This document shows, piece after piece, positions 3,304-42,982 of a stretch of 58,516 nucleotides of DNA. Every line of letters begins with the position of its first letter. Position 1 is the stretch's first letter. The stretch is from NCBI GenBank assembly GCA_964484145.1, contig CAZAED010000003.1, positions 1 to 58,516 of the forward strand, given 5' to 3'. Made by a program: the position numbers and the translations under genes. The stretch is from an uncultured Candidatus Saccharibacteria bacterium. Its GTDB lineage: Bacteria > Patescibacteriota > Doudnabacteria > UBA920. Under the pieces are notes generated by a model. That model worked only from the letters and a program-made list of their open reading frames with translations, did not search any database and was not told the DNA's origin.

Positions 3304-3621
3304 ATGAACAAACTCAGAATTAAAAAAGGCGATACAGTAAAAGTGCTTTCCGGCAAAGACAAAGGCAAAACCGGCAAGGTTATTTCGGTAATGCCAAAAC
3401 TTGGTAAGGTTGTTGTAGAAAACGCCAATATGCATACTCGTTTTGAAAAGGCTAAAAAAGCCGGCGAGAAAGGTAAAAAAGTTACTTTTTCTTCCCCTAT
3501 GCAAATTTCGAAAGTCCAGTTAATAGATCCGCATTCAGGTAATCCAACAAGAGTAAACTATACTTTTTTAGAAAACGGTAACAAGCAAAGAACAGCTAAG
3601 GCCAGTGGAAAGGCAGTATAA
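3304..3621 (+). CDS. rplX: 50S ribosomal protein L24
   Basis: KOW motif KKGDTVKVLSGKDKGKTGKV; operon order. Confidence 0.94.
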   Translation: MNKLRIKKGDTVKVLSGKDKGKTGKVISVMPKLGKVVVENANMHTRFEKAKKAGEKGKKVTFSSPMQISKVQLIDPHSGNPTRVNYTFLENGNKQRTAKASGKAV

Positions 3622-3693
3622 TGTACGGAAGTACAGATAATACGGATCATGTGGATCTGTAAAATCTGTAAGATCCGTAATTCTGTAAATTAT
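3622..3693 (+). repeat. ~70-nt hairpin repeat, copy 1 of 3 (GTACGGAAGTACAGATAATACGGATCAT...GGATCTGTAAAATCTGTAAGATCCGTAATTCTGTA)
   Basis: Near-identical to 4234-4304 and 4977-5051. Confidence 0.92.
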
Positions 3694-4233
3694 ATGGAAA
3701 GATTACAAGAAAAATATAATAAGGAAATTGTTAAAGCTTTGAAAGAAAAGTTTGGCTTTAAGAATGTAATGGAAGTACCAAGAATTTTGAAAGTTGTTAT
3801 TAATGTGGGCGTTGGAAAAATTAAGGAAGATAAGAAGCGTATAGATTTAGTAGTTGAAGATATTGCCAAAATTGCAGGACAGGCTCCGGTAAAGAATTTG
3901 TCCCGCAAGTCTATTTCAGGTTTTAAAGTAAGACAAAACCAAATTGTAGGTTTAAGTGTTACTTTAAGAGGATATAGAATGTATAGCTTTTTAGACAAGT
4001 TGGTCAATGTGGCCTTACCAAGAGTAAGAGATTTCCAGGGTATAAGCAAAAAAGGTTTCGACGGCCGTGGTAATTATCACTTGGGAATGAAAGAGCAAAT
4101 AGTTTTTCCGGAAGTTTCTCCGGATTCTCTAGAAAATATATTCGGCTTGGAAATTTCGGTAGTCACCAACGCTAAAAGAGACGATACAGCATATGAACTT
4201 TTAAAATTAATGAAATTCCCGTTTAAAGATTAA
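3694..4233 (+). CDS. rplE: 50S ribosomal protein L5
   Basis: The L5 sequence begins at MERLQEKYNKEIV. The 15 upstream codons of the tracked ORF (from 3649) read through the intergenic repeat. NLSRKSISGFKVR and RDFQG motifs are present. Confidence 0.93.
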   Translation: MERLQEKYNKEIVKALKEKFGFKNVMEVPRILKVVINVGVGKIKEDKKRIDLVVEDIAKIAGQAPVKNLSRKSISGFKVRQNQIVGLSVTLRGYRMYSFLDKLVNVALPRVRDFQGISKKGFDGRGNYHLGMKEQIVFPEVSPDSLENIFGLEISVVTNAKRDDTAYELLKLMKFPFKD

Positions 4234-10603: not shown

Positions 10604-13156
10604 ATGTCGTTTGAAATAAATACTTTTAATATAGTGCTTTTGGTATTTGTCGGCCTTTTGATTGTTTTTGTGGCCGTGTTTTTTTATTTTTACAAAAGGC
10701 ATAGGTTTCATTTAGGCCATGTTATACCCAGAACTATGGACTGGGTGTTTTTGGAAATTCAAATGCCTAAAGAAAGTAGCGAGGACAAAGACCAGCAAAA
10801 ACCAAAAAGTGAGGAAGAAAAAAAACATTTAATTGGTATAGCTGAGCAGCTATTTACAACCCTGTCCGAAAGCGGCCATAACAAAGGCTGGCTGTTAGGT
10901 AAGGACTATTATAGTTTTGAAATTGCCTGCACAGACAAAAAAATTAGCTTTTATATTAACTGCCCAAAACATTTGCAGGAATTAGTGGAGAAGCAACTTC
11001 AGGCGCAGTACCCGCACGCGTTTGTGGAAGCAGTTAAGGGGTATAACCCTTTCCAAAAAGGCGGGCAAGTGGAAGCGGAAGAGTTGGTGTTAAATAAAAA
11101 ATACTACTACCCATTTAGGACTTACAAGACTATGGAGTCCGACCCTTTAAATTCCATTACAAACGCAATGAGTAAGCTGCTGGAAAATGAGGGGGCGGCT
11201 GTGCAGTTTATATTAAGCCCGGCAGGAACAAGTTGGCAGGGAAAACCTAGGCATATGGCGCTCGAAGTTCAGCAGGGTAAGAATCCTGAACTAGTTGAGC
11301 GTGGACATTTTTACAGGGCTGTTATAGGCATGCTTAGGGGTTTGGGAGGTATTGCGTCTGGTACGAAACGAAGTCCGCAAGGGGGTTCTCATACTCATAA
11401 AGATTTAAGCGGATATTATTCGCCTATTTCGTTAACTCCAATGCAGCAGGAGATTGTAAAAAAGCTTGAAGAAAAAGCCAGCAGGCCCGGCTATAAAGTA
11501 AATGTAAGACTTGTAACTTCATCTACCACGCCTGGGCAGGCTCATAGTCATATGCGTAATTTAATGGGCGCGTTTTTACAGTACAACATGCCTCCGTTTA
11601 ACGGATTTAAGCATAAAAAAAGAAGCAAAGAAGAAATTATTAAAGATTATATTTTTAGAGTTTTTAGAGACTATGGCTCTAAAACTATTTTAAATACCGA
11701 AGAACTGGCAAGTTTATGGCATTTGCCAACGCCGTACATAGAAACGCCAAACATAAAGTGGCTTATTTCCAAAAAAGCTCCGCCGCCTTTAAATATTCAC
11801 ACGGAAGGTTTGTTAATAGGAAAAAATATTTATAGGGGAGTGGAGACGCCAATTTTTATGGGTAGGGAAGACAGGCGCAGACATACTTATGTGCTTGGTC
11901 GTACCGGGAGCGGTAAATCTGTTTTGCTGGCGAATATGGCAATACAGGATATTCGCAATGGCGAGGGTTTGTGCGTTATAGACCCTCATGGCGACTTAAT
12001 ACAAGATATTTTACAAAATGTTCCAAAGGAAAGAGCCGAAGACATTATTGTGTTTGAGCCGTTTGATATGGACAGGCCACTTGGGCTTAATATGCTAGAG
12101 GTAGATAGCGAGGAGCAAAAAGATTTTGCCGTTCAGGAAATGATATCTATTTTCTATAAATTAGTTACCGACCCTGCAATGCTTGGGCCTATGTTTGAGC
12201 ATAATATGCGTAACGCTATGCTTACACTTATGGCAGACGAAGAACACCCAGGTACTATAACGGACATCCCGAGAATTTTTACAGATACCGACTTTCAAAA
12301 ATACAAAGTGGAAAAACTTAAAGACCCGGTTGTAAAACTTTTTTGGGAAAAAGAAATGGCTAAAACTTCTGACTTCCATAAGAGCGAAATGCTTGGATAT
12401 TTAATTTCCAAAGTCGGGCGTTTTGTGGAAAATACTATGATGCGCAATATAGTTGGTCAAAGTAAAAGTGGTTTTAACTTTAGAAAAGTTATGGACGAAG
12501 GAAAGGTTTTACTGGTGAATTTGTCCAAAGGAAGGACAGGTGAAATTAACGCAAAGCTTTTGGGGCTTATACTTGTTTCTAAAATTCAAATGGCTGCGCT
12601 TTCTCGGGCAGATATACCAGAAGAAAAAAGAAAAGACTTTTATTTGTATGTAGACGAGTTTCAAAACTTTATTACGGACGCTTTTTCTTCTATTCTTTCT
12701 GAAGCCAGAAAATATAAATTAAATCTCATCATCGCGCACCAATACTTAGGGCAATTAGAAACTCAGGCCGGAGCCCAGGGGGCTGCGAGTAAGGATTTGC
12801 GTAACGCGGTGTTTGGCAACGTAGGCACCATGGTGGTCTTTAGAACCGGCGCCGAAGACAGCGAAGTTTTAGGTAAAGAATTCGCGCCTACCTTTAACCA
12901 GTTTGATTTAGTAAACATAGACCGCTATAACGCCTACGTTAGGCTTATGGTAAATGGAACTGCTAGTAAACCCTTTAACATGGCAACAATGCCGCCGCAA
13001 AAACTGGGCACAGAAGAGTTGGCAGAAAGCATACGACAGCTTTCTAGGCTTAAGCACGGAAGGCCCCGCGCGGAAGTAGAAGAAGAATTACTCGAAGCCG
13101 GTAATGTGGCTGAAAGTATGGCGGAGGGCTTGCCCGATGTGGAAAGAGGATTGTAG
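10604..13156 (+). CDS. membrane-anchored VirD4/TraD/TraG-like P-loop ATPase (type IV coupling protein-like)
   Basis: N-terminal TM helix, Walker A GRTGSGKS, DPHGDL, Walker B YLYVDEFQNF and AHQYLGQL motifs. The N-terminal ~400 aa have no recognisable domain. Confidence 0.75.
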   Translation: MSFEINTFNIVLLVFVGLLIVFVAVFFYFYKRHRFHLGHVIPRTMDWVFLEIQMPKESSEDKDQQKPKSEEEKKHLIGIAEQLFTTLSESGHNKGWLLGKDYYSFEIACTDKKISFYINCPKHLQELVEKQLQAQYPHAFVEAVKGYNPFQKGGQVEAEELVLNKKYYYPFRTYKTMESDPLNSITNAMSKLLENEGAAVQFILSPAGTSWQGKPRHMALEVQQGKNPELVERGHFYRAVIGMLRGLGGIASGTKRSPQGGSHTHKDLSGYYSPISLTPMQQEIVKKLEEKASRPGYKVNVRLVTSSTTPGQAHSHMRNLMGAFLQYNMPPFNGFKHKKRSKEEIIKDYIFRVFRDYGSKTILNTEELASLWHLPTPYIETPNIKWLISKKAPPPLNIHTEGLLIGKNIYRGVETPIFMGREDRRRHTYVLGRTGSGKSVLLANMAIQDIRNGEGLCVIDPHGDLIQDILQNVPKERAEDIIVFEPFDMDRPLGLNMLEVDSEEQKDFAVQEMISIFYKLVTDPAMLGPMFEHNMRNAMLTLMADEEHPGTITDIPRIFTDTDFQKYKVEKLKDPVVKLFWEKEMAKTSDFHKSEMLGYLISKVGRFVENTMMRNIVGQSKSGFNFRKVMDEGKVLLVNLSKGRTGEINAKLLGLILVSKIQMAALSRADIPEEKRKDFYLYVDEFQNFITDAFSSILSEARKYKLNLIIAHQYLGQLETQAGAQGAASKDLRNAVFGNVGTMVVFRTGAEDSEVLGKEFAPTFNQFDLVNIDRYNAYVRLMVNGTASKPFNMATMPPQKLGTEELAESIRQLSRLKHGRPRAEVEEELLEAGNVAESMAEGLPDVERGL

Positions 13157-32699: not shown

Positions 32700-34403
32700 G
32701 TGTTTAAATTTATAAAAAAAATAAGGGTTGTTTTAAGATTAAACCACATAATTTTTGTGTTTTTTAAAGCTGGGTTTTCGGGTTTAATATCACGCTATGG
32801 TTTTAAAAGGCATGTGCACCCATTAAAAAGGCATAAAGGTAAAGAAGAAGAGCAGGAGTTGGTTTTAGCGTTAAATTTTAGGCTTGCTTTAGAATCTTTG
32901 GGCCCGGTTTTTGTAAAGTTCGGACAAATTTTGAGCACGAGGTCAGATTTTTTGCCTAAAACTTTTATTAATCAGTTAGAAAAATTACAGGCAAAAGTTC
33001 CGCCTTTTAAATATGAAAAAGCTGTTGAAACTATTGAAAACGAGTTCCAAAAACCGTTAAAAAAACTTTTTAAAGAGTTTGGTGAAAAACCATTTGCATC
33101 TGCCTCACTCGGCCAAGTCTACAAAGCTAAACTACATACCGGCGAAGTAGTTGCGGTAAAGGTGCAAAGACCAAAGGCAAAAGAGCAAATTCTGCTAGAC
33201 ACTGAAGTGCTTTTAGCTATCGCTCATATAGCGGAAAAATATTCCTCCGATGCTAAAAAATTTAATTTGCTGGAAACAGTACAGGAATTTAGGCGCTGGA
33301 CTTTAAACGAACTAGACTATAGAAAAGAAGCCACCAACTGCGAAATTTTTACCAACTTTTTTAAAAAAGACAAAAATATTTACGGACCTAAAGTTTTTTG
33401 GGATTATACTTCGGAAAGCGTGTTGTGTCTTGAATTTGTGGAAGGTAAGCAAGTTTCCGAGGTAATTAAGGATTTAGATTATCCACAAGAAGAAAAGGCC
33501 CAGCTAGCCAGACACGTTGCTGACGCGTTTATACGCCAATTTTTTGAATATGGTTTCTTTCACGCTGACCCGCATCCGGGCAATGTTTTTGTTTTGCCGG
33601 ACAATAAAATTTTATTTTTAGACTTTGGCATGGTCGGATTTTTAGATGAAAGCTTAACTGCGCTTGGCTCTGCTATGTTTTTGGCCTTGATTCAGAAAGA
33701 CACTCAAAACCTGGTAGACTTGTTTATAAAAATGGAAGAAAACTACGACGAAAGATTAAAGGAACAAAAGGTAGAAGATTTGGTAAATATTAACAACCTA
33801 AGGAAAGAATTAAACGTACTTATTCTGCAGTGGTCTTCTGGCATGTCCGGACAGGGTAATAATTTTACCAAACTATTTTCAGAAATGCTTAATATTGCAG
33901 TGCAAAATGGTATTAGCGTGCCAACAGACTTAACTATGATGGGTAAAGCAATTGTTACTTTAGATGTTGTGGCAAAACAATTAAGTAGCGACTTTAAAAT
34001 AGAGGAGTGGGAAAAATCTACCCTACAAAGAATTGTTAAACGAAAGCTTTCGGCAAAAAATTTGCAATCACGTGCCCAGAATATGGGACTAATTATAGAA
34101 GACTTAATTAAGCGTTTGCCGGCCAGCTCTTCTTCTATTGTAAGTAATATAGAAAAGGGTCGTTTTGGTATGGAAATAAACACTCAGCAGTTAGTAGACT
34201 ATGAAAGGCTTTTAAACGCAAATTCTAAAATTAGTAGCTATGGCACGTTGCTCGGTGCTATTATTTTAGCCTCAGCTTTAATTTATCAGGTCACAAACCA
34301 ACCCAAATTTTTTGGCTTTACCATAGCTCAAATAGGGCTTTATGGAAGTGTTATTTTAATTGCTTTATTTTTTCTTGGCAATCTAAAAAAAGGAAATGAC
34401 TAA
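32700..34403 (+). CDS. ABC1/UbiB-family atypical kinase
   Basis: LGP-FVKFGQ-LSTR-D, ASLGQVYKA and HADPHPGN motifs; C-terminal TM helices; GTG start. Confidence 0.88.
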   Translation: MFKFIKKIRVVLRLNHIIFVFFKAGFSGLISRYGFKRHVHPLKRHKGKEEEQELVLALNFRLALESLGPVFVKFGQILSTRSDFLPKTFINQLEKLQAKVPPFKYEKAVETIENEFQKPLKKLFKEFGEKPFASASLGQVYKAKLHTGEVVAVKVQRPKAKEQILLDTEVLLAIAHIAEKYSSDAKKFNLLETVQEFRRWTLNELDYRKEATNCEIFTNFFKKDKNIYGPKVFWDYTSESVLCLEFVEGKQVSEVIKDLDYPQEEKAQLARHVADAFIRQFFEYGFFHADPHPGNVFVLPDNKILFLDFGMVGFLDESLTALGSAMFLALIQKDTQNLVDLFIKMEENYDERLKEQKVEDLVNINNLRKELNVLILQWSSGMSGQGNNFTKLFSEMLNIAVQNGISVPTDLTMMGKAIVTLDVVAKQLSSDFKIEEWEKSTLQRIVKRKLSAKNLQSRAQNMGLIIEDLIKRLPASSSSIVSNIEKGRFGMEINTQQLVDYERLLNANSKISSYGTLLGAIILASALIYQVTNQPKFFGFTIAQIGLYGSVILIALFFLGNLKKGND

Positions 34404-36373
34404 TGCAGAATGATGATTTAAAAATTCCCAAACCTCATAAAATTGGCAATATGTCTTTTTCTGTTTCTAAAGTTAATGCAGAAAAAAAAGATATACAACC
34501 ATTGGTACAAAAAGATGGGGCTGCTTTGCCGGTAAATAATCTTGCAAAGCCGGTGGCAGCGCAGCCGGTTTTTAAACCTGTGGTGGCTAACAACATTCCA
34601 CAAAGAGTTTTGCGACCACAGGCTAACCCTTTAATTGTTCGCGAGCCAATGCCCAAGCCCAAAGTTTTACAGCCACTCTCAAACACCCTTGCGCCCCAAA
34701 CTCCTGTGCCGCATCCACATACCGAATCACTGCCGCCGGTTTTTCCTAAGCACGAACAATCTCAAGATTCACTTATAAAAAAAACAACAACCAAAAAAGT
34801 TGTGTTGGTTATTTTAGACGGTTTTGGAGTGGCGCCTGCTGCTACCGGTAATGCTATTTTTAGAGCCCGTATTCCTAATTTAAATAACATGGTAAATAAT
34901 TACCCTTCTTTAACTCTGCAGGCCAGCGGCCCTTTAGTTGGTCTTCCTTGGGGCCAAATGGGTAATAGCGAAAGCGGGCATTTAAATATTGGAGCGGGTA
35001 GAATTGTGGGCGAAGACTTGCCGCGCATAACTATGGCTATACAAAACGGCGAGTTTTTTAAAAATCCGGTATTGCGTGGAGCTATTGAACACGCCAAAAA
35101 GAACAATTCAAAATTGCATTTGTTAGGTTTGGTGAGCGGCGGCGGAGTGCATAGTTTAGACGAACATATGTTCGCGCTTTTAGGCCTTTCGGCGGAAATG
35201 AACTTAAGCCGAATTTTTATTCATATGTTTACCGACGGTCGCGACACAGCGGAAAGGGTGGCTATGGAAGAGCTAGGTAAAGTTAAAGAAAGAATAAACC
35301 GAATTGGCGTTGGGGTAATCGCATCTGTTGGCGGCCGGTTTTATACTATGGATAGGGGAGGACACTGGAACCAAACTGAAAGTACTTACCAGGTTTTGGT
35401 AAACGGTAATGGCCCTAAGGCTGCTTCGGCCGAAGAAGTTATTTCAAATTCTTACCAAAAACAAATTTTTGACGAAATGATAGTGCCTACGGTTATAACT
35501 AATTTTGATCAAAAACCAGTGGCGCAAATTGAGGACAACGACGCGGTTATTTTCTTTAATTTTCGTCAGGACAGAGCACTACAATTAACGGAAATGTTTT
35601 TAGCGCCGCAAAATGTGCCGACTGAATTTAGGCATCCGGCTTTGCAAAATTTGTATTTTTGCACCATGACAGAATATTCGCAAAATTTGCAAACAGCAAA
35701 AATTGCTTTCCCACCAATGGATTTAAAAAATAATTTAGCCGAAGTACTTTCTAAAAACCATTTTACTCAGTTTCATATTGCGGAGAGCGAAAAGTACGCA
35801 CACGTAACTTCGTTTTTTAACTGCGGTAAAACAGACCCTTACCCAGGTGAAGAAAGGCATATTGTCACAAGTCCTAATAATGCGCGTAATTATACCGATA
35901 GTCCTCAAATGTCTGCTGAGGAACTGACCGATATACTCACCCAAAAAATTACCGGCACAAATACTAATTTTTTTGTGGCTAATTATGCAAATTGCGATAT
36001 GGTGGGCCATACGGGTAATTTACAGGCCTCAATTAAAGCTGTAGAGTTTATAGATCAATGTATAAAACAAGTTATGGACGCGGCGCTTTTAACAGATGCT
36101 ACATTAATTATTACGGCAGATCATGGCAACGTAGAAGAAATGATATCTTCACAAACCGGAGAAATAGATAAAGATCATACCACTAACCCAGTGCCTTGCC
36201 TTTTAATTAGCAATAGTTTAAAGTTTAAGAGTCCTTTAGGCCTTAATTTTGAAAGTTTGTCCGGGGAGATGCCAAATGGCGTAATTTCCGACATTGCCCC
36301 GACTATATTAGGATTATTAGACTTAGAAAAGCCGGAAGAAATGACGGGGATAAATTTATTGGAAATTATTTAG
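34403..36373 (+). CDS. gpmI: 2,3-bisphosphoglycerate-independent phosphoglycerate mutase with ~130-aa Pro-rich N-terminal extension
   Basis: The iPGM core starts at VVLVILDGFG. NSE-GH-N-GAGR and ADHGN motifs are present. The TAATG overlap with the upstream gene supports the far-upstream start. Confidence 0.88.
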   Translation: MQNDDLKIPKPHKIGNMSFSVSKVNAEKKDIQPLVQKDGAALPVNNLAKPVAAQPVFKPVVANNIPQRVLRPQANPLIVREPMPKPKVLQPLSNTLAPQTPVPHPHTESLPPVFPKHEQSQDSLIKKTTTKKVVLVILDGFGVAPAATGNAIFRARIPNLNNMVNNYPSLTLQASGPLVGLPWGQMGNSESGHLNIGAGRIVGEDLPRITMAIQNGEFFKNPVLRGAIEHAKKNNSKLHLLGLVSGGGVHSLDEHMFALLGLSAEMNLSRIFIHMFTDGRDTAERVAMEELGKVKERINRIGVGVIASVGGRFYTMDRGGHWNQTESTYQVLVNGNGPKAASAEEVISNSYQKQIFDEMIVPTVITNFDQKPVAQIEDNDAVIFFNFRQDRALQLTEMFLAPQNVPTEFRHPALQNLYFCTMTEYSQNLQTAKIAFPPMDLKNNLAEVLSKNHFTQFHIAESEKYAHVTSFFNCGKTDPYPGEERHIVTSPNNARNYTDSPQMSAEELTDILTQKITGTNTNFFVANYANCDMVGHTGNLQASIKAVEFIDQCIKQVMDAALLTDATLIITADHGNVEEMISSQTGEIDKDHTTNPVPCLLISNSLKFKSPLGLNFESLSGEMPNGVISDIAPTILGLLDLEKPEEMTGINLLEII

Positions 36374-38750: not shown

Positions 38751-40040
38751 CTATCGTATTTCAATTACCTTTAATTCCTCGCCGTCTAATATAAATAGCC
38801 GCCGATTTTCTTGATCGGCCATTATTTTTTTTATATTTTGTCCTTGGTACAAGACACAACTATTTTGCGCGTCGCGAGAGTCGAGTTCAAGGGCTTCAAC
38901 AACTTGATTTTTTTGCCAAATAGCGTAACCTAGGTTGCTGGCAATCAGAGGGTGGTGAATTTTTTCGCTGGTTCGAGAAATTAGCTTTTGTTGGTTTGAG
39001 CCAAAATCAAAAAAATCGATTTCGCCATTTCCATAATAAATTAAATTTGGACTGCTTTGGTCAAAGCCTATTTCTTGGGCTGCGCCTAATACTTTTGTCG
39101 TGAGCCCTACTTGGTGTAATTGTCCGTCGCCCAAAACAAAAATTTGTTTTTGTTCGGTAATAAATAGCTTTGCTTCCGAAAATTTTGGAAGTTCAGCTAT
39201 TTTGTTTATTTGGCTCGGACTATTTATTGCAAAGTTTAGTAAGATTGAACTATTTTCTTCTTTGCTTAGCACGTAACCGTCTCCAGAAAGTAAGCTAAAA
39301 TCCAGAATATTTGTAAATAATGGGTTTTTAATACCAGTTTTGGGCTCGAAGGAATATAGGGTATTTTTAGACAAAATAAAATAACTGCCACCAAGTCCAA
39401 GTATTTTATTTACATCTTTATTGTCACCGGGGATTTCTTTAATGCTGCCGCTATTTTGTTCAAATACAGAAAATTGTCTTGCCGAGGCAGAATATTCAGA
39501 ATTAATTAAATACTCTGAATCGTTGCTAAGTAGTGTAATATTTGTCCCGAGGTCTGTTAGAGGGTATTTTTTATTGCTTAAATTTTTTAAAGAAATTACA
39601 TTCAAACTGTCAGGTTTTAAGGTTAGAACTGAATTATTTTTGTAATAAAAATCTATAACGCCGGTATCTAGTTGTTTAGCTTCCGGTAAGTATTTTAGTA
39701 AATAAATTTTTCCGTCAAACGGACTGGCCCAAGTTACTTCGCCTGGGTTTACCGGCAGACGTTTTTGCCAAGAACAGTAAGTAGGGAATTCAAATTTTAA
39801 GCTGTAGTCTTTTGGTTTTAAAAAACGTAGAGTATTTACAGGTTGTTTTTTGAGTGAGCCATCCAAAAAAATATTTGGTTCTTTGGGTTCGGTTATAAAG
39901 GCCAAAATACCGGTTTTTGTTAGCGTACCTTTATGCCAATTGAAATCTAATCCCATAGAATAAAAAATTGTTGCCGGCGCTAATACTGCAAACAAAATTA
40001 GGCATATGAAAATTAGTAAGTACCTTGAGCGTTTGGACAT
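38751..40040 (-). CDS. membrane-anchored PEGA-domain-like protein
   Basis: The start is set at MSKRSRYLLIF (ATG at 40040-40038). The longer tracked ORF would overlap mreB and its promoter. Has a TM anchor followed by a PEGA-like segment (I-TEPKEPNIFLDG). Confidence 0.7.
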   Translation of the reverse strand: MSKRSRYLLIFICLILFAVLAPATIFYSMGLDFNWHKGTLTKTGILAFITEPKEPNIFLDGSLKKQPVNTLRFLKPKDYSLKFEFPTYCSWQKRLPVNPGEVTWASPFDGKIYLLKYLPEAKQLDTGVIDFYYKNNSVLTLKPDSLNVISLKNLSNKKYPLTDLGTNITLLSNDSEYLINSEYSASARQFSVFEQNSGSIKEIPGDNKDVNKILGLGGSYFILSKNTLYSFEPKTGIKNPLFTNILDFSLLSGDGYVLSKEENSSILLNFAINSPSQINKIAELPKFSEAKLFITEQKQIFVLGDGQLHQVGLTTKVLGAAQEIGFDQSSPNLIYYGNGEIDFFDFGSNQQKLISRTSEKIHHPLIASNLGYAIWQKNQVVEALELDSRDAQNSCVLYQGQNIKKIMADQENRRLFILDGEELKVIEIR

Positions 40041-40069
40041 ATACCCTAATTTTAGCCTAAAACAGGCAG

Positions 40070-40098
40070 TTGTTACAAATCCGAATGTTGTATATAAT
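40070..40098 (+). promoter_or_regulatory. sigma70-like promoter for mreB
   Basis: TTGTTA-17 nt-TATAAT. Confidence 0.6.
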
Positions 40099-40200
40099 AG
40101 ATCGGTAGCAATACTAATCATTGACAAAATTGAGCAAGATTGACATGACTGACAAGATTTGGTCATTCCTAATCTTTTAAATTTTCTCAATCTTACCACC

Positions 40201-41208
40201 TTGTTTGAATCTAAAGTCGGCATAGATTTAGGTACGGCCAACACCTTAGTTTATTTGCCTAAAAAAGGAATAATAATAAACGAACCAACAGTTGTGGCAA
40301 TTTCTTTGGCTGACAATAAAGTTTTAGCCGTGGGCCAGGAAGCTAAAGAAATGCTTGGACGAACTCCTGAAACCATAGTAGCGAGCAGGCCTATGAAGGA
40401 CGGAGTAATTGCCGACTACCGCGTGACGGAAGCCATGCTAAGGTATTTTATAAATAAAGCTTTGGGCAAGGTTCGGTTTTTTAGGCCGGAAGTTATGATT
40501 TCGGTCCCAGGTGGAATTACTTCTACTGAGCGTAGAGCAGTTATAGAAGCAGCCCAGGCCGCAGGCGCGCGCGCAGCGTACGTAATAAAAGAAACTGTAG
40601 CGGCAGCCATTGGCGCCGGAATTCCCATTGCAGAAGCTAGGGGTAATTTAATTATTGACATAGGCGGAGGCACAACAGACGTTGCCGTACTTTCTTTGGG
40701 TGGTATTGTTAATTCGACTTCGGTAAGGGTAGCTGGTAACCGTTTAGACCAGGCAATAATTGAGTACGTTAGAAAAAAACAGGGTATAGCCATTGGCGAC
40801 AGAACCGCCGAAGAAATTAAAATAAATATTGGTAGCGCTTTGCCGGTAAAAGAAGAAGAGATTATGGAAATAAAAGGGCGTGATATGGTAACTGGCCTAC
40901 CAAAGACAGTAAATGTTTCCACAAACGAAATTGTGGATGCGCTTAACGAAGAGTTGTACGAAATTGCGCGCGCAGTAAAAACCGTACTTCAGGATACTCC
41001 GCCAGAGCTTGCTTCCGACATTATAGAAAAAGGTATGGTCATGACAGGAGGTAGCGCCCTGCTTAGGAATTTAGACAAGTACATAAGCCAAAGTGTTGGT
41101 GTTCCTTGCTATGTTGCCGAAGAAGCGCTTTTGTGCGTAGCTAAAGGAACTGGCGTAGCTTTAGACAACTTAGATAGTTATAAGCGAAGTATATTGAGTG
41201 TAAGATAA
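40201..41208 (+). CDS. mreB: rod shape-determining protein MreB
   Basis: IGIDLGTANTLVY, DIGGGTTD and MTGGSALL motifs. There is no in-frame ATG near the N-terminus. A TTG at 40201 gives a canonical (M)FESKVGIDLG start. Confidence 0.9.
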   Translation: MFESKVGIDLGTANTLVYLPKKGIIINEPTVVAISLADNKVLAVGQEAKEMLGRTPETIVASRPMKDGVIADYRVTEAMLRYFINKALGKVRFFRPEVMISVPGGITSTERRAVIEAAQAAGARAAYVIKETVAAAIGAGIPIAEARGNLIIDIGGGTTDVAVLSLGGIVNSTSVRVAGNRLDQAIIEYVRKKQGIAIGDRTAEEIKINIGSALPVKEEEIMEIKGRDMVTGLPKTVNVSTNEIVDALNEELYEIARAVKTVLQDTPPELASDIIEKGMVMTGGSALLRNLDKYISQSVGVPCYVAEEALLCVAKGTGVALDNLDSYKRSILSVR

Positions 41209-42327: not shown

Positions 42328-42355
42328 TTGACATTCTGACTAAAGGTGGTAAACT
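42328..42355 (+). promoter_or_regulatory. sigma70-like promoter with extended -10
   Basis: TTGACA-16 nt (ending in TGG)-TAAACT. Confidence 0.5.
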
Positions 42356-42363
42356 AGCTATAA

Positions 42364-42604
42364 TAAAATATTATAAAGCACTAAACATTCGGCCTCGCAC
42401 GCCGAAACGCTGGCAGGGGAATATCTTGCACGGTCAGCCTACGCCGTAGAAATAGGTAAAAAGAGTTCGCTATTGTTGTCTGATCGCCTATTAATCGGCA
42501 CGCTACAACATAAGTGAAAATCGAGGTGGTACCGCGGAAGCGATAATATATCGTAAACCCGACCTTGAAAACAATTTTTTGTTTTTGGGGACGGGTTTTT
42601 GTTT
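42364..42604 (+). promoter_or_regulatory. T-box-like transcription-attenuation leader
   Basis: GAGGTGGTACCGCGG at 42523-42537 matches the T-box core GGGTGGNACCGCG. The flanks UCGAGG and CCUUGA can close an antiterminator around a UGGUACC bulge. CCUUGA is also part of the 5' strand of the terminator at 42555-42598. Confidence 0.5.
42555..42604 (+). terminator. intrinsic terminator of the leader
   Basis: AAACCCGACCTTGAAAACA...TGTTTTTGGGGACGGGTTT followed by TTGTTT. Confidence 0.7.
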
Positions 42605-42634
42605 GGAAAATCTATAATTAGGGAGAAGGGATAA

Positions 42635-42901
42635 ATGTGGCATCATCATAAGGAGCCGCTGAGGGTGGGACTCTTTGGGTATGATTGGAGAGATAGAATT
42701 GTTCAGGAATTGGCAAGAGTTAGGGGGCATCAGGTTATTTGGATTGCCCATATCCACCAGGCAGGGATTGTTTTGGACTTTTTATTGGACGACCCGCCGG
42801 ACATCCTAGTTGTCCACCCTTTAGCGCGTGTTAATTTCCCTCTGCTATTGTCCCCCCAGGCGGTAGTAGTAATCGGCCCGTCTCGGGCCAAAACAAGGTG
42901 A
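42635..42901 (+). CDS. orphan 88-aa protein in high-GC island 1
   Basis: Strong RBS GGGAGAAGGG at 42621-42630, four nt before the ATG. An intrinsic terminator lies directly downstream. Composition is R/P/W/H-rich, unlike the neighbouring genes. Confidence 0.55.
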   Translation: MWHHHKEPLRVGLFGYDWRDRIVQELARVRGHQVIWIAHIHQAGIVLDFLLDDPPDILVVHPLARVNFPLLLSPQAVVVIGPSRAKTR

Positions 42902-42909
42902 CGCAAAGG

Positions 42910-42955
42910 GCGCCGTGAAGGGTTATTATGTACCCGCGCGGCGCTTGTTTTTGTT
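42910..42955 (+). terminator. intrinsic terminator after island-1 ORF
   Basis: GCGCCG...CGGCGC stem followed by TTGTTTTTGTT. Confidence 0.75.
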
Positions 42956-42982
42956 GACATAAGGTGAACTATCGTTTACTAT
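42954..42982 (+). promoter_or_regulatory. sigma70-like promoter for dinB
   Basis: TTGACA-17 nt-TACTAT. Confidence 0.5.

Follow-up and report, generated by a model that had tools for sequence, protein, structure and literature searches.

Transcriptional T-box riboswitches generally need a long Stem I platform to capture their tRNA quickly enough (PMC7583486). Those with a short Stem I (classes III and IV; Actinobacterial ileS) are mostly translational and depend on a K-turn and on a Stem II S-turn (PMC7583486, PMC10482949). All known class III T-boxes are Ile-specific, and in the class III structure from Nocardia farcinica the specifier, A16-U17-C18-A19, is located in the apical loop (PMC10482949). 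As a rule, the specifier consists of a codon followed by a 3' purine, C being preferred at the third codon position, and the discriminator domain has been defined structurally by the signature 5'-RRRxG-Stem III-AA-3' (PMC7583486). The models described by TBDB are limited to that of Rfam and a translational one for Actinobacteria. Our search of the literature, which was limited and is no proof of absence, returned no report connecting T-box riboswitches with CPR, Patescibacteria, Saccharibacteria, or Parcubacteria.

The leader described here, which precedes an 88-aa ORF in a CPR genome, is very likely a real tRNA-sensing T-box riboswitch, in a stripped-down form that fits none of the four described T-box classes. 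It is located in the window, i.e., the whole stretch of DNA that was analyzed (58,516 nt); the sequence is also found in SRR14092373 and SRR14092386. Judged from published descriptions and the published structure, its architecture most resembles class III (Actinobacterial ileS), but it is more reduced and carries an intrinsic terminator. Upstream of the leader, a consensus scan identified a sigma-70-type promoter with 10 of 12 consensus matches and an additional TG (TTGACA-16-TGgTAAACT), from which transcription would start near 42362-42364. The arrangement TTGACA-16-TAAACT recurs in two related loci, L003 and L006; in a third one, L010, it takes the closely similar form TTGACC...TAAAAT. The features of the locus are compiled in Table 1.

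Table 1. Positions of the promoter, the leader elements, and the adjoining features in the window
Feature	Position	Strand	Sequence or pairing	Remarks
Promoter	42328..42355	+	TTGACA 42328-42333, 16-nt spacer, TAAACT 42350-42355	TG-extended
Miniature Stem I	42377..42411	+		35 nt in total
Stem I base helix	42377-42379 with 42409-42411	+	AGC with GCU	closes asymmetric internal loop
Stem I 6-bp helix	42388-42393 with 42401-42406	+	UUCGGC/GCCGAA	RNAalifold
Stem I apical heptaloop	42394-42400	+	CUCGCAC	YUCGCAC across copies
Candidate specifier	42396-42398	+	CGC + purine A42399	inferred
Miniature Stem II	42413..42429	+	GCAGGG/UCUUGC, 6 bp	RNAalifold, pair table, RF00230 Stem II columns
Stem IIA/B pseudoknot	42430..42457	+		hand-anchored pair table
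Stem IIA	42430-42434 with 42443-42447	+	ACGGU with GCCGU	4-5 bp; RNAalifold
Stem IIB	42437-42441 with 42453-42457	+	loop GCCUA with UAGGU	4-5 bp
Discriminator, 5' part	42458..42520	+		purine string, Stem III, AA
Purine string	42458-42465	+	AAAAAGAG	fits RRRxG as AAGAG
Stem III	42466-42518	+		long lineage-specific apical insertion
AA 3' of Stem III	42519-42520	+	AA	
Antiterminator	42521..42568	+		A1, 7-nt bulge, A2
Helix A1	42521-42526 with 42563-42568	+	UCGAGG with CCUUGA	5 Watson-Crick pairs, 1 G-U
T-box bulge	42527-42533	+	UGGUACC, 7 nt	invariant in window, L003, L010
Helix A2	42534-42537 with 42559-42562	+	GCGG with CCGA	hand-anchored pair table
Hairpin inserted in A2	42540-42554	+	GCGAUA-AUA-UAUCGU	
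Intrinsic terminator	42555..42604	+	U-tract UUUUUGUUU 42596-42604	hairpin 42555-42598, then U-tract
Ribosome-binding site	42621-42630	+	GGGAGAAGGG	strong
88-aa ORF	42635-42901	+		T-box-regulated candidate gene
Terminator-like GC-rich hairpin	42908..42953	+	hairpin + UUGUUUUUG	read from sequence; pattern scanner did not list it on + strand
dinB promoter	42954..42982	+	TTGACA-17-TACTAT	unit boundary, outside riboswitch
LexA-box-like element	42966-42977	+	GAACTATCGTTT	overlaps dinB promoter; conserved in L003, L007

A preliminary description of the sequence had pointed out a T-box core, a helix closing an antiterminator, and a competing terminator, and all three proved correct. The core, GAGGUGGUACCGCGG (corresponding to GAGGTGGTACCGCGG), is read at 42523-42537. 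The 12-mer GGTGGNACCGCG occurs once in the 58.5-kb window; with one mismatch allowed, at least one match appeared in 20 of 100 shuffles of the window, and the motif by itself is therefore weak evidence. It is taken beyond chance by its location in an intergenic leader close to a promoter, by the overlap of its pairing partner with the terminator, and most of all by being conserved in the orthologous leaders (RF00230 E values of 1e-11 and 3e-7). The strands UCGAGG and CCUUGA proposed to form helix A1 are complementary, CCUUGA is invariant across all three leaders available, and it belongs, as claimed, to the 5' strand of the terminator hairpin, which is directly followed by UUGUUU (42599-42604). 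Specifically, the 5' strand of the terminator includes the 3' strands of both A2 and A1 (CCGA plus CCUUGA, 42559-42568), which both folds need. Folding of the RNA was in accordance with the mutually exclusive arrangement that had been proposed. The terminator hairpin alone amounts to -22 kcal/mol; for the full-length window leader, the minimum free energy is -46.5 kcal/mol versus -33.4 kcal/mol for the antiterminator fold, and in all three genomes the terminator is favored by approximately 13 kcal/mol in the full-length RNA. In the nascent RNA, i.e., before the 3' strand of the terminator is available, the unconstrained minimum-free-energy structure consists of A1, the 7-nt bulge, and A2 in three of three genomes.

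The part of the discriminator preceding A1 carries the RRRxG-Stem III-AA signature, which reads AAGAG, Stem III, and AA in the window and in L003 and AUGAG, Stem III, and GAA in L010, with one pyrimidine in the purine string of the latter. Stem III is variable in sequence and length (6 to 7 bp in L003 and L010) and is maintained via compensatory changes. The pair at the base of A2, which elsewhere is G-U and acts as aminoacyl sensor, is G-U in L003, G-C in L010, and G-A, i.e., unpaired, in the window.

At the Rfam gathering thresholds, the window produced no match. In a permissive scan, the window leader aligned end to end with RF00230 (T-box; gathering score, 93 bits), scoring a nonsignificant 16.5 bits (E = 0.18). 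A genome search with the neighboring DinB protein yielded 10 loci, all of them from CPR MAGs labelled Doudnabacteria or Saccharibacteria, and the leader is present in two, L003 (DinB 82% identical) and L010 (52%). The order mreB, 169-aa protein, 125-aa membrane protein, leader, small ORF, and dinB is common to the window and these two loci. Both orthologous leaders align with RF00230 over model positions 1 to 219, that of L003 with 38.2 bits (E = 3e-7) and that of L010 with 55.4 bits (E = 1.1e-11), the sole large discrepancy being 84 to 87 nt of Stem I that are replaced by 17 to 24 nt. These alignments settle the homology of the leader to the T-box family. The window copy carries 41 additional nt at the Stem III apex as well as an inserted hairpin within A2, and its low score is due to these lineage-specific insertions and the missing Stem I, not to absent homology. 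None of the three copies reaches the gathering score; since all scores lie below this cut-off, threshold-based standard annotation would miss the element.

The preliminary description had proposed a T-box leader in front of a gene other than an aaRS gene, a claim for which the orthologous RF00230 matches, the covariation including that of IIA/B, and the exclusive folds now speak in this CPR genome. It had also held that, failing both a significant RF00230 match and a Stem I/specifier architecture, the core would be a coincidental 12-nt match within a generic attenuator. The window copy alone indeed gives no significant match, and the appearance of the one-mismatch motif in the window shuffles would suit such a coincidence as well. 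The idea is nonetheless effectively refuted by the orthologous leaders, which align over the whole model, and is further contradicted by the exact motif in all copies and by a multihelix architecture that covaries; we regard it as extremely improbable.

The covariation set consists of three independent leader sequences (window, L003, and L010), so that covariation has little statistical power. Within this set, RNAalifold recovers the short 5' hairpin, the second hairpin, Stem IIA, Stem III, and the terminator, with 10 pairs changed on both sides. As MAFFT misplaced parts of L010, elements were anchored by hand and their pairs tabulated. Every helix is conserved and covaries, with compensatory changes in Stem I (two), Stem II (one), IIB (two), the terminator (three pairs by RNAalifold), and also Stem III. 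Apart from the leader, no T-box-like signals were detected in the window; the CPR loci lacking the leader had none at all. A metagenome scan with the pattern GCTGGCNGGGGANNATCNNGCNCGG, representing the invariant Stem II region, returned at least 120 matches; among the matches listed, all were in high-GC coding sequence (a conserved ...RWPGxIxPG motif), and none had a T-box downstream of GCTGGCNGGGGANNATCNNGCNCGG; viral contigs scanned with a pattern of the 5' half of the leader gave no match. In L006 and the corresponding contig L137, the small ORF and the promoter are kept and the T-box is replaced by approximately 90 nt of unrelated sequence that is not a decayed copy. Since absence thus takes the form of full replacement rather than of a decayed leader, the element appears to be under selection where it is present.

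In the 5' half, the preliminary description had been unable to fold a canonical Stem I, and rightly so: a long Stem I with an elbow-binding platform (K-turn, internal specifier loop, and distal double-T-loop) is absent from the leader, RF00230 deleting 84 to 87 nt in this region. The miniature Stem I contains an asymmetric internal loop formed by ACUAAACA (5' side) and AC (3' side); two pairs of its helix are compensatory (C-G to U-A), and the loop sequence UCGCAC is invariant in the three copies. A K-turn at the base of Stem I was not found, the tandem G-A being not conserved (GA on the 3' strand in L010 only, AC in the window and L003). Stem II, with one compensatory change (A-U to G-C), is capped by a GNRNA-type pentaloop, i.e., GAAUA (42419-42423) in the window and GAGAA in L010. 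It lacks an S-turn (AGUA/GAA loop-E) in all three copies, only the GAA half being recognizable and the AGUA half being deleted by RF00230. In the pseudoknot that follows, pairs 1 and 5 of IIB changed on both sides (G-U to U-A; A-U, G-C, or U-A), and a CCGU element at the position of the F-box is F-box-like.

The heptaloop of Stem I has a format like that of an anticodon loop, namely, a pyrimidine, U, three nucleotides, a purine, and one more nucleotide. The triplet in this format, together with the purine that follows, constitutes the candidate specifier CGC-A. It conforms to both regularities noted above for specifiers, a 3' purine after the codon and C in third place, and its distance from the base of Stem I is similar to that of A16-U17-C18-A19 of N. 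farcinica (approximately 16 to 21 nt). The UGGU of the bulge requires A73 as the discriminator base of the tRNA. Among the tRNAs compatible with A73 are those for Arg, Ala, Ile, and Leu. No tRNA genes were found in the window or in any related locus obtained. Our best guess for the sensed tRNA is a tRNA-Arg reading CGC.

Two GAA-NNN sequences had been put forward as specifier candidates at positions that are one base off; GAAUAUC extends from 42419 to 42425 and GAAAUAG from 42449 to 42455. According to the pair table, the former sits in the apical loop of Stem II and the latter corresponds to the linker and the 3' strand of the IIA/B pseudoknot, and both were rejected.

The leader could also be a functional T-box whose specifier lies elsewhere, either AUC (Ile, 42423-42425), on the 3' edge of the loop of Stem II, or GCA (Ala) in the heptaloop, with different roles for the 5' hairpins. 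AUC is conserved in three of three copies and would echo the Actinobacterial ileS T-boxes, in agreement with the Ile specificity of all known class III members; tRNA-Ile has A73, which fits UGGU. In the RNAalifold structure, however, the C of AUC pairs inside Stem II and its U is part of the closing G-U pair, the next nucleotide is a pyrimidine instead of a conserved purine, and RF00230 places the AUC hairpin at Stem II, not at Stem I, in all three copies. As for GCA, its next nucleotide is C, and it violates the third-position preference. We therefore consider a specifier outside CGC unlikely and retain CGC-A as the candidate.

Compared with class III, as represented by the ileS T-boxes of N. 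farcinica and Mycobacterium tuberculosis (Actinobacterial T-boxes with an "ultrashort Stem I"), the leader shares a short Stem I without an elbow-binding double-T-loop platform, and its candidate specifier likewise occupies an apical loop as a codon with a 3' purine (C-G-C-A here, A16-U17-C18-A19 there). In both, Stem II comes directly afterwards, and a compact IIA/B pseudoknot and then a canonical discriminator follow (PMC10482949, PMC7583486). As differences, the apical loop comprises 7 nt rather than 5 to 6 nt, a 17-nt hairpin topped by a GNRNA-type pentaloop takes the place of a Stem II helix of approximately 40 nt with an S-turn, and a canonical K-turn is missing. Class III members mostly sequester the Shine-Dalgarno sequence, whereas the output here is an intrinsic terminator. 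Moreover, the candidate triplet differs from AUC, the leader precedes a gene other than ileS, and the host belongs to the CPR rather than to the Actinobacteria.

With class I (Bacillus subtilis tyrS type; RF00230), the leader has in common the T-box sequence, the competition of A1, bulge, and A2 with an intrinsic terminator, Stem III with its flanking purines, the IIA/B pseudoknot, and an identical order of domains. Unlike in class I, approximately 85 nt of Stem I (K-turn, S-turn specifier loop, AG bulge, and distal loop) are reduced to a hairpin of approximately 20 nt, the Stem II S-turn is deleted, and the downstream gene does not encode an aaRS, a biosynthetic enzyme, or a transporter. The glycine-specific class II (glyQS) is likewise minimal and transcriptional, but its reduction is the opposite one, glyQS retaining the elbow platform on a long Stem I while having no Stem II or IIA/B at all. 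The specifier of glyQS, GGC, is GC-rich, as is the CGC proposed here; with a GC-rich specifier, the codon-anticodon helix could be strong and depend less on lateral support, according to an argument made in PMC7583486.

Taken together, we put the probability that the leader is a real, functional T-box of a new minimal architectural variant at roughly three in four. In favor of this reading, we weighed the end-to-end RF00230 matches, the synteny at 52 to 82% DinB identity, the compensatory pairs, the energetics of the two folds, the RRRxG-Stem III-AA signature, and the class III-like format of the specifier; against it, that no copy attains 93 bits, the E value of 0.18 for the window, the sample of three sequences, the variable A2 base pair, the lack of a tRNA gene in the loci searched, and a gene unlinked to amino acids. 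In the proposed mechanism, transcription would start near 42362 from the conserved sigma-70-type promoter, and the 5' half (42377-42457) would fold into Stem I, the GNRNA-capped Stem II, and the IIA/B pseudoknot, with the Stem I hairpin presenting CGC and the 3' purine in the anticodon-loop-like heptaloop. By analogy with class III, these elements may create a groove holding the anticodon stem-loop of a single tRNA. The 3' half would serve as a canonical discriminator composed of the purine string, Stem III, AA, A1, UGGUACC, and A2. With an uncharged tRNA bound, the free NCCA end of that tRNA (ACCA) would pair with UGGU and stabilize the antiterminator, letting RNA polymerase proceed into the 88-aa gene; with a charged tRNA or none, formation of the more stable terminator (42555-42604) would halt transcription.

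A leader derived from a T-box that no longer senses tRNA could serve as a constitutive or protein-dependent attenuator, with the 5' hairpins acting in RNA stability or protein binding. Such a loss of sensing would account for the missing modules described as essential (long Stem I, S-turn, and K-turn), for a sensor pair at the base of A2 that is not kept as G-U, and for a target gene unrelated to amino acids, and L006 manages without any T-box. Yet the invariant parts are the tRNA-contacting ones (UGGUACC, the purine string, and the heptaloop codon with its purine), and IIA/B is preserved by compensatory changes across genomes that are otherwise approximately 50% diverged. A plain attenuator has no need of a bulge, a purine string, a heptaloop, or a pseudoknot, and lineages lacking the function lost the whole element and left no relic. 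We consider the loss of tRNA sensing rather unlikely and favor a T-box that would still respond to tRNA.

Whether such a T-box deserves a class of its own is a more tentative matter, on which we lean slightly to the negative side. A fifth class ("mini T-box") would be characterized by heptaloop decoding, a GNRNA-capped Stem II, and IIA/B, by the lack of K-turn, S-turn, and platform, and by a cotranscriptional terminator; it would be the first T-box in the CPR as far as found and would couple the charging of one tRNA, probably tRNA-Arg, to the clade-specific protein of 88 aa and not to the supply of amino acids. A natural leader that is devoid of platform, K-turn, and S-turn yet operates an intrinsic terminator would put to the test how small the tRNA-decoding unit of a riboswitch can be, and a decoding module of approximately 80 nt would be an attractive scaffold for engineering. 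T-box regulation would extend to the ultrasmall CPR bacteria, in which regulatory RNAs are almost unstudied, and Rfam gathering thresholds miss T-box variants of this kind.

The preliminary description had taken the 88-aa ORF for an orphan, which has to be corrected, as homologs exist in three other lineages. They occupy the same position in L003 (63% identity), L006 (49%), and L010 (29%) and show in-frame indels and a coding-type substitution pattern. Judged by such sequence features, the ORF is a real gene, restricted to four lineages. As a single query against 5.8 billion proteins, it retrieved only itself. A profile of the four sequences retrieved P0002-P0004 from the same 5.8 billion proteins; the contigs of these proteins, L133-L141, are 97 to 99.7% identical to L003, L006, and L010 and thus add no lineage. 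An exhaustive HMMER search of 1.84 billion representatives revealed no lineage of the family beyond the window, L003, L006, and L010. The protein had no family match in Pfam, NCBIfam, or PADLOC, and the family profile gave only nonsignificant matches to Rossmann N termini in the PDB (E = 0.045 or worse). The AlphaFold2 model of the protein features an alternating beta-alpha pattern at low confidence (pLDDT of 51). No link of the gene to amino acid metabolism was found, and family search assigned it to neither aaRSs, biosynthesis, nor transporters. If the T-box reading is true, induction upon tRNA uncharging would provide the first functional handle on this otherwise unannotated family.

The ribosome-binding site of the gene lies 17 nt past the terminator and takes part in neither fold. 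Downstream of the ORF, hairpins with U-runs equivalent to that at 42908-42953 are also present in L003 and L010. Because the small gene has its own terminator-like hairpin and dinB a separate promoter with a LexA-like box, the T-box would control a single small gene, i.e., a monocistronic unit. The LexA-box-like GAACTATCGTTT is a box of the Gram-positive type (Cheo box) and recurs in L003 (3811-3822) and L007 (3880-3891); its conservation suggests classical SOS regulation of dinB in this clade.

The slot between the gene for the 125-aa membrane protein and dinB is variable and was also surveyed in L005, L007, and L009. Its content is either the T-box plus the small ORF, the same ORF behind a leader that is no T-box (L006), a gene for a GNAT-type acetyltransferase, or nothing. 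The acetyltransferase is found in L004 (approximately 3415-3800) and in L008, which additionally has an ORF of 267 aa (slot positions in L008, 2518-2922 and 2989-3792). The leader of approximately 90 nt in L006 (3470-3590, equal to 1377-1500 of L137) contains only an AU-rich hairpin (AAAGAUCCUUU...AAAGGAUUUUU), which may be a simple attenuator substituting for the T-box. In L003 (3233-3271, equal to approximately 1290-1328 of L133), a near-perfect palindrome of approximately 38 nt, AATTCCGCCAAAGGCGGATCCGCCTTTGGCGGAAT, is inserted downstream of the -10 box, just ahead of the T-box leader; it is confined to the L003 lineage, and a miniature mobile element and an operator are both conceivable.

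Elsewhere in the window, a 497-aa ORF without known function (38751-40244, minus strand), one of two minus-strand ORFs of at least 180 aa listed, overlaps with its 5' end the start region of mreB. A perfectly palindromic LexA-box-like sequence, GAACATATGTTC, at 35162-35173 lies within the phosphoglycerate mutase ORF (34403-36373) and is probably fortuitous. An 850-aa protein with domains of VirD4/TrwB-type coupling proteins of type IV secretion is encoded at 10604-13156, amid the housekeeping genes secY, dnaX, htrA, recJ, iPGM, mreB, and PBP2.
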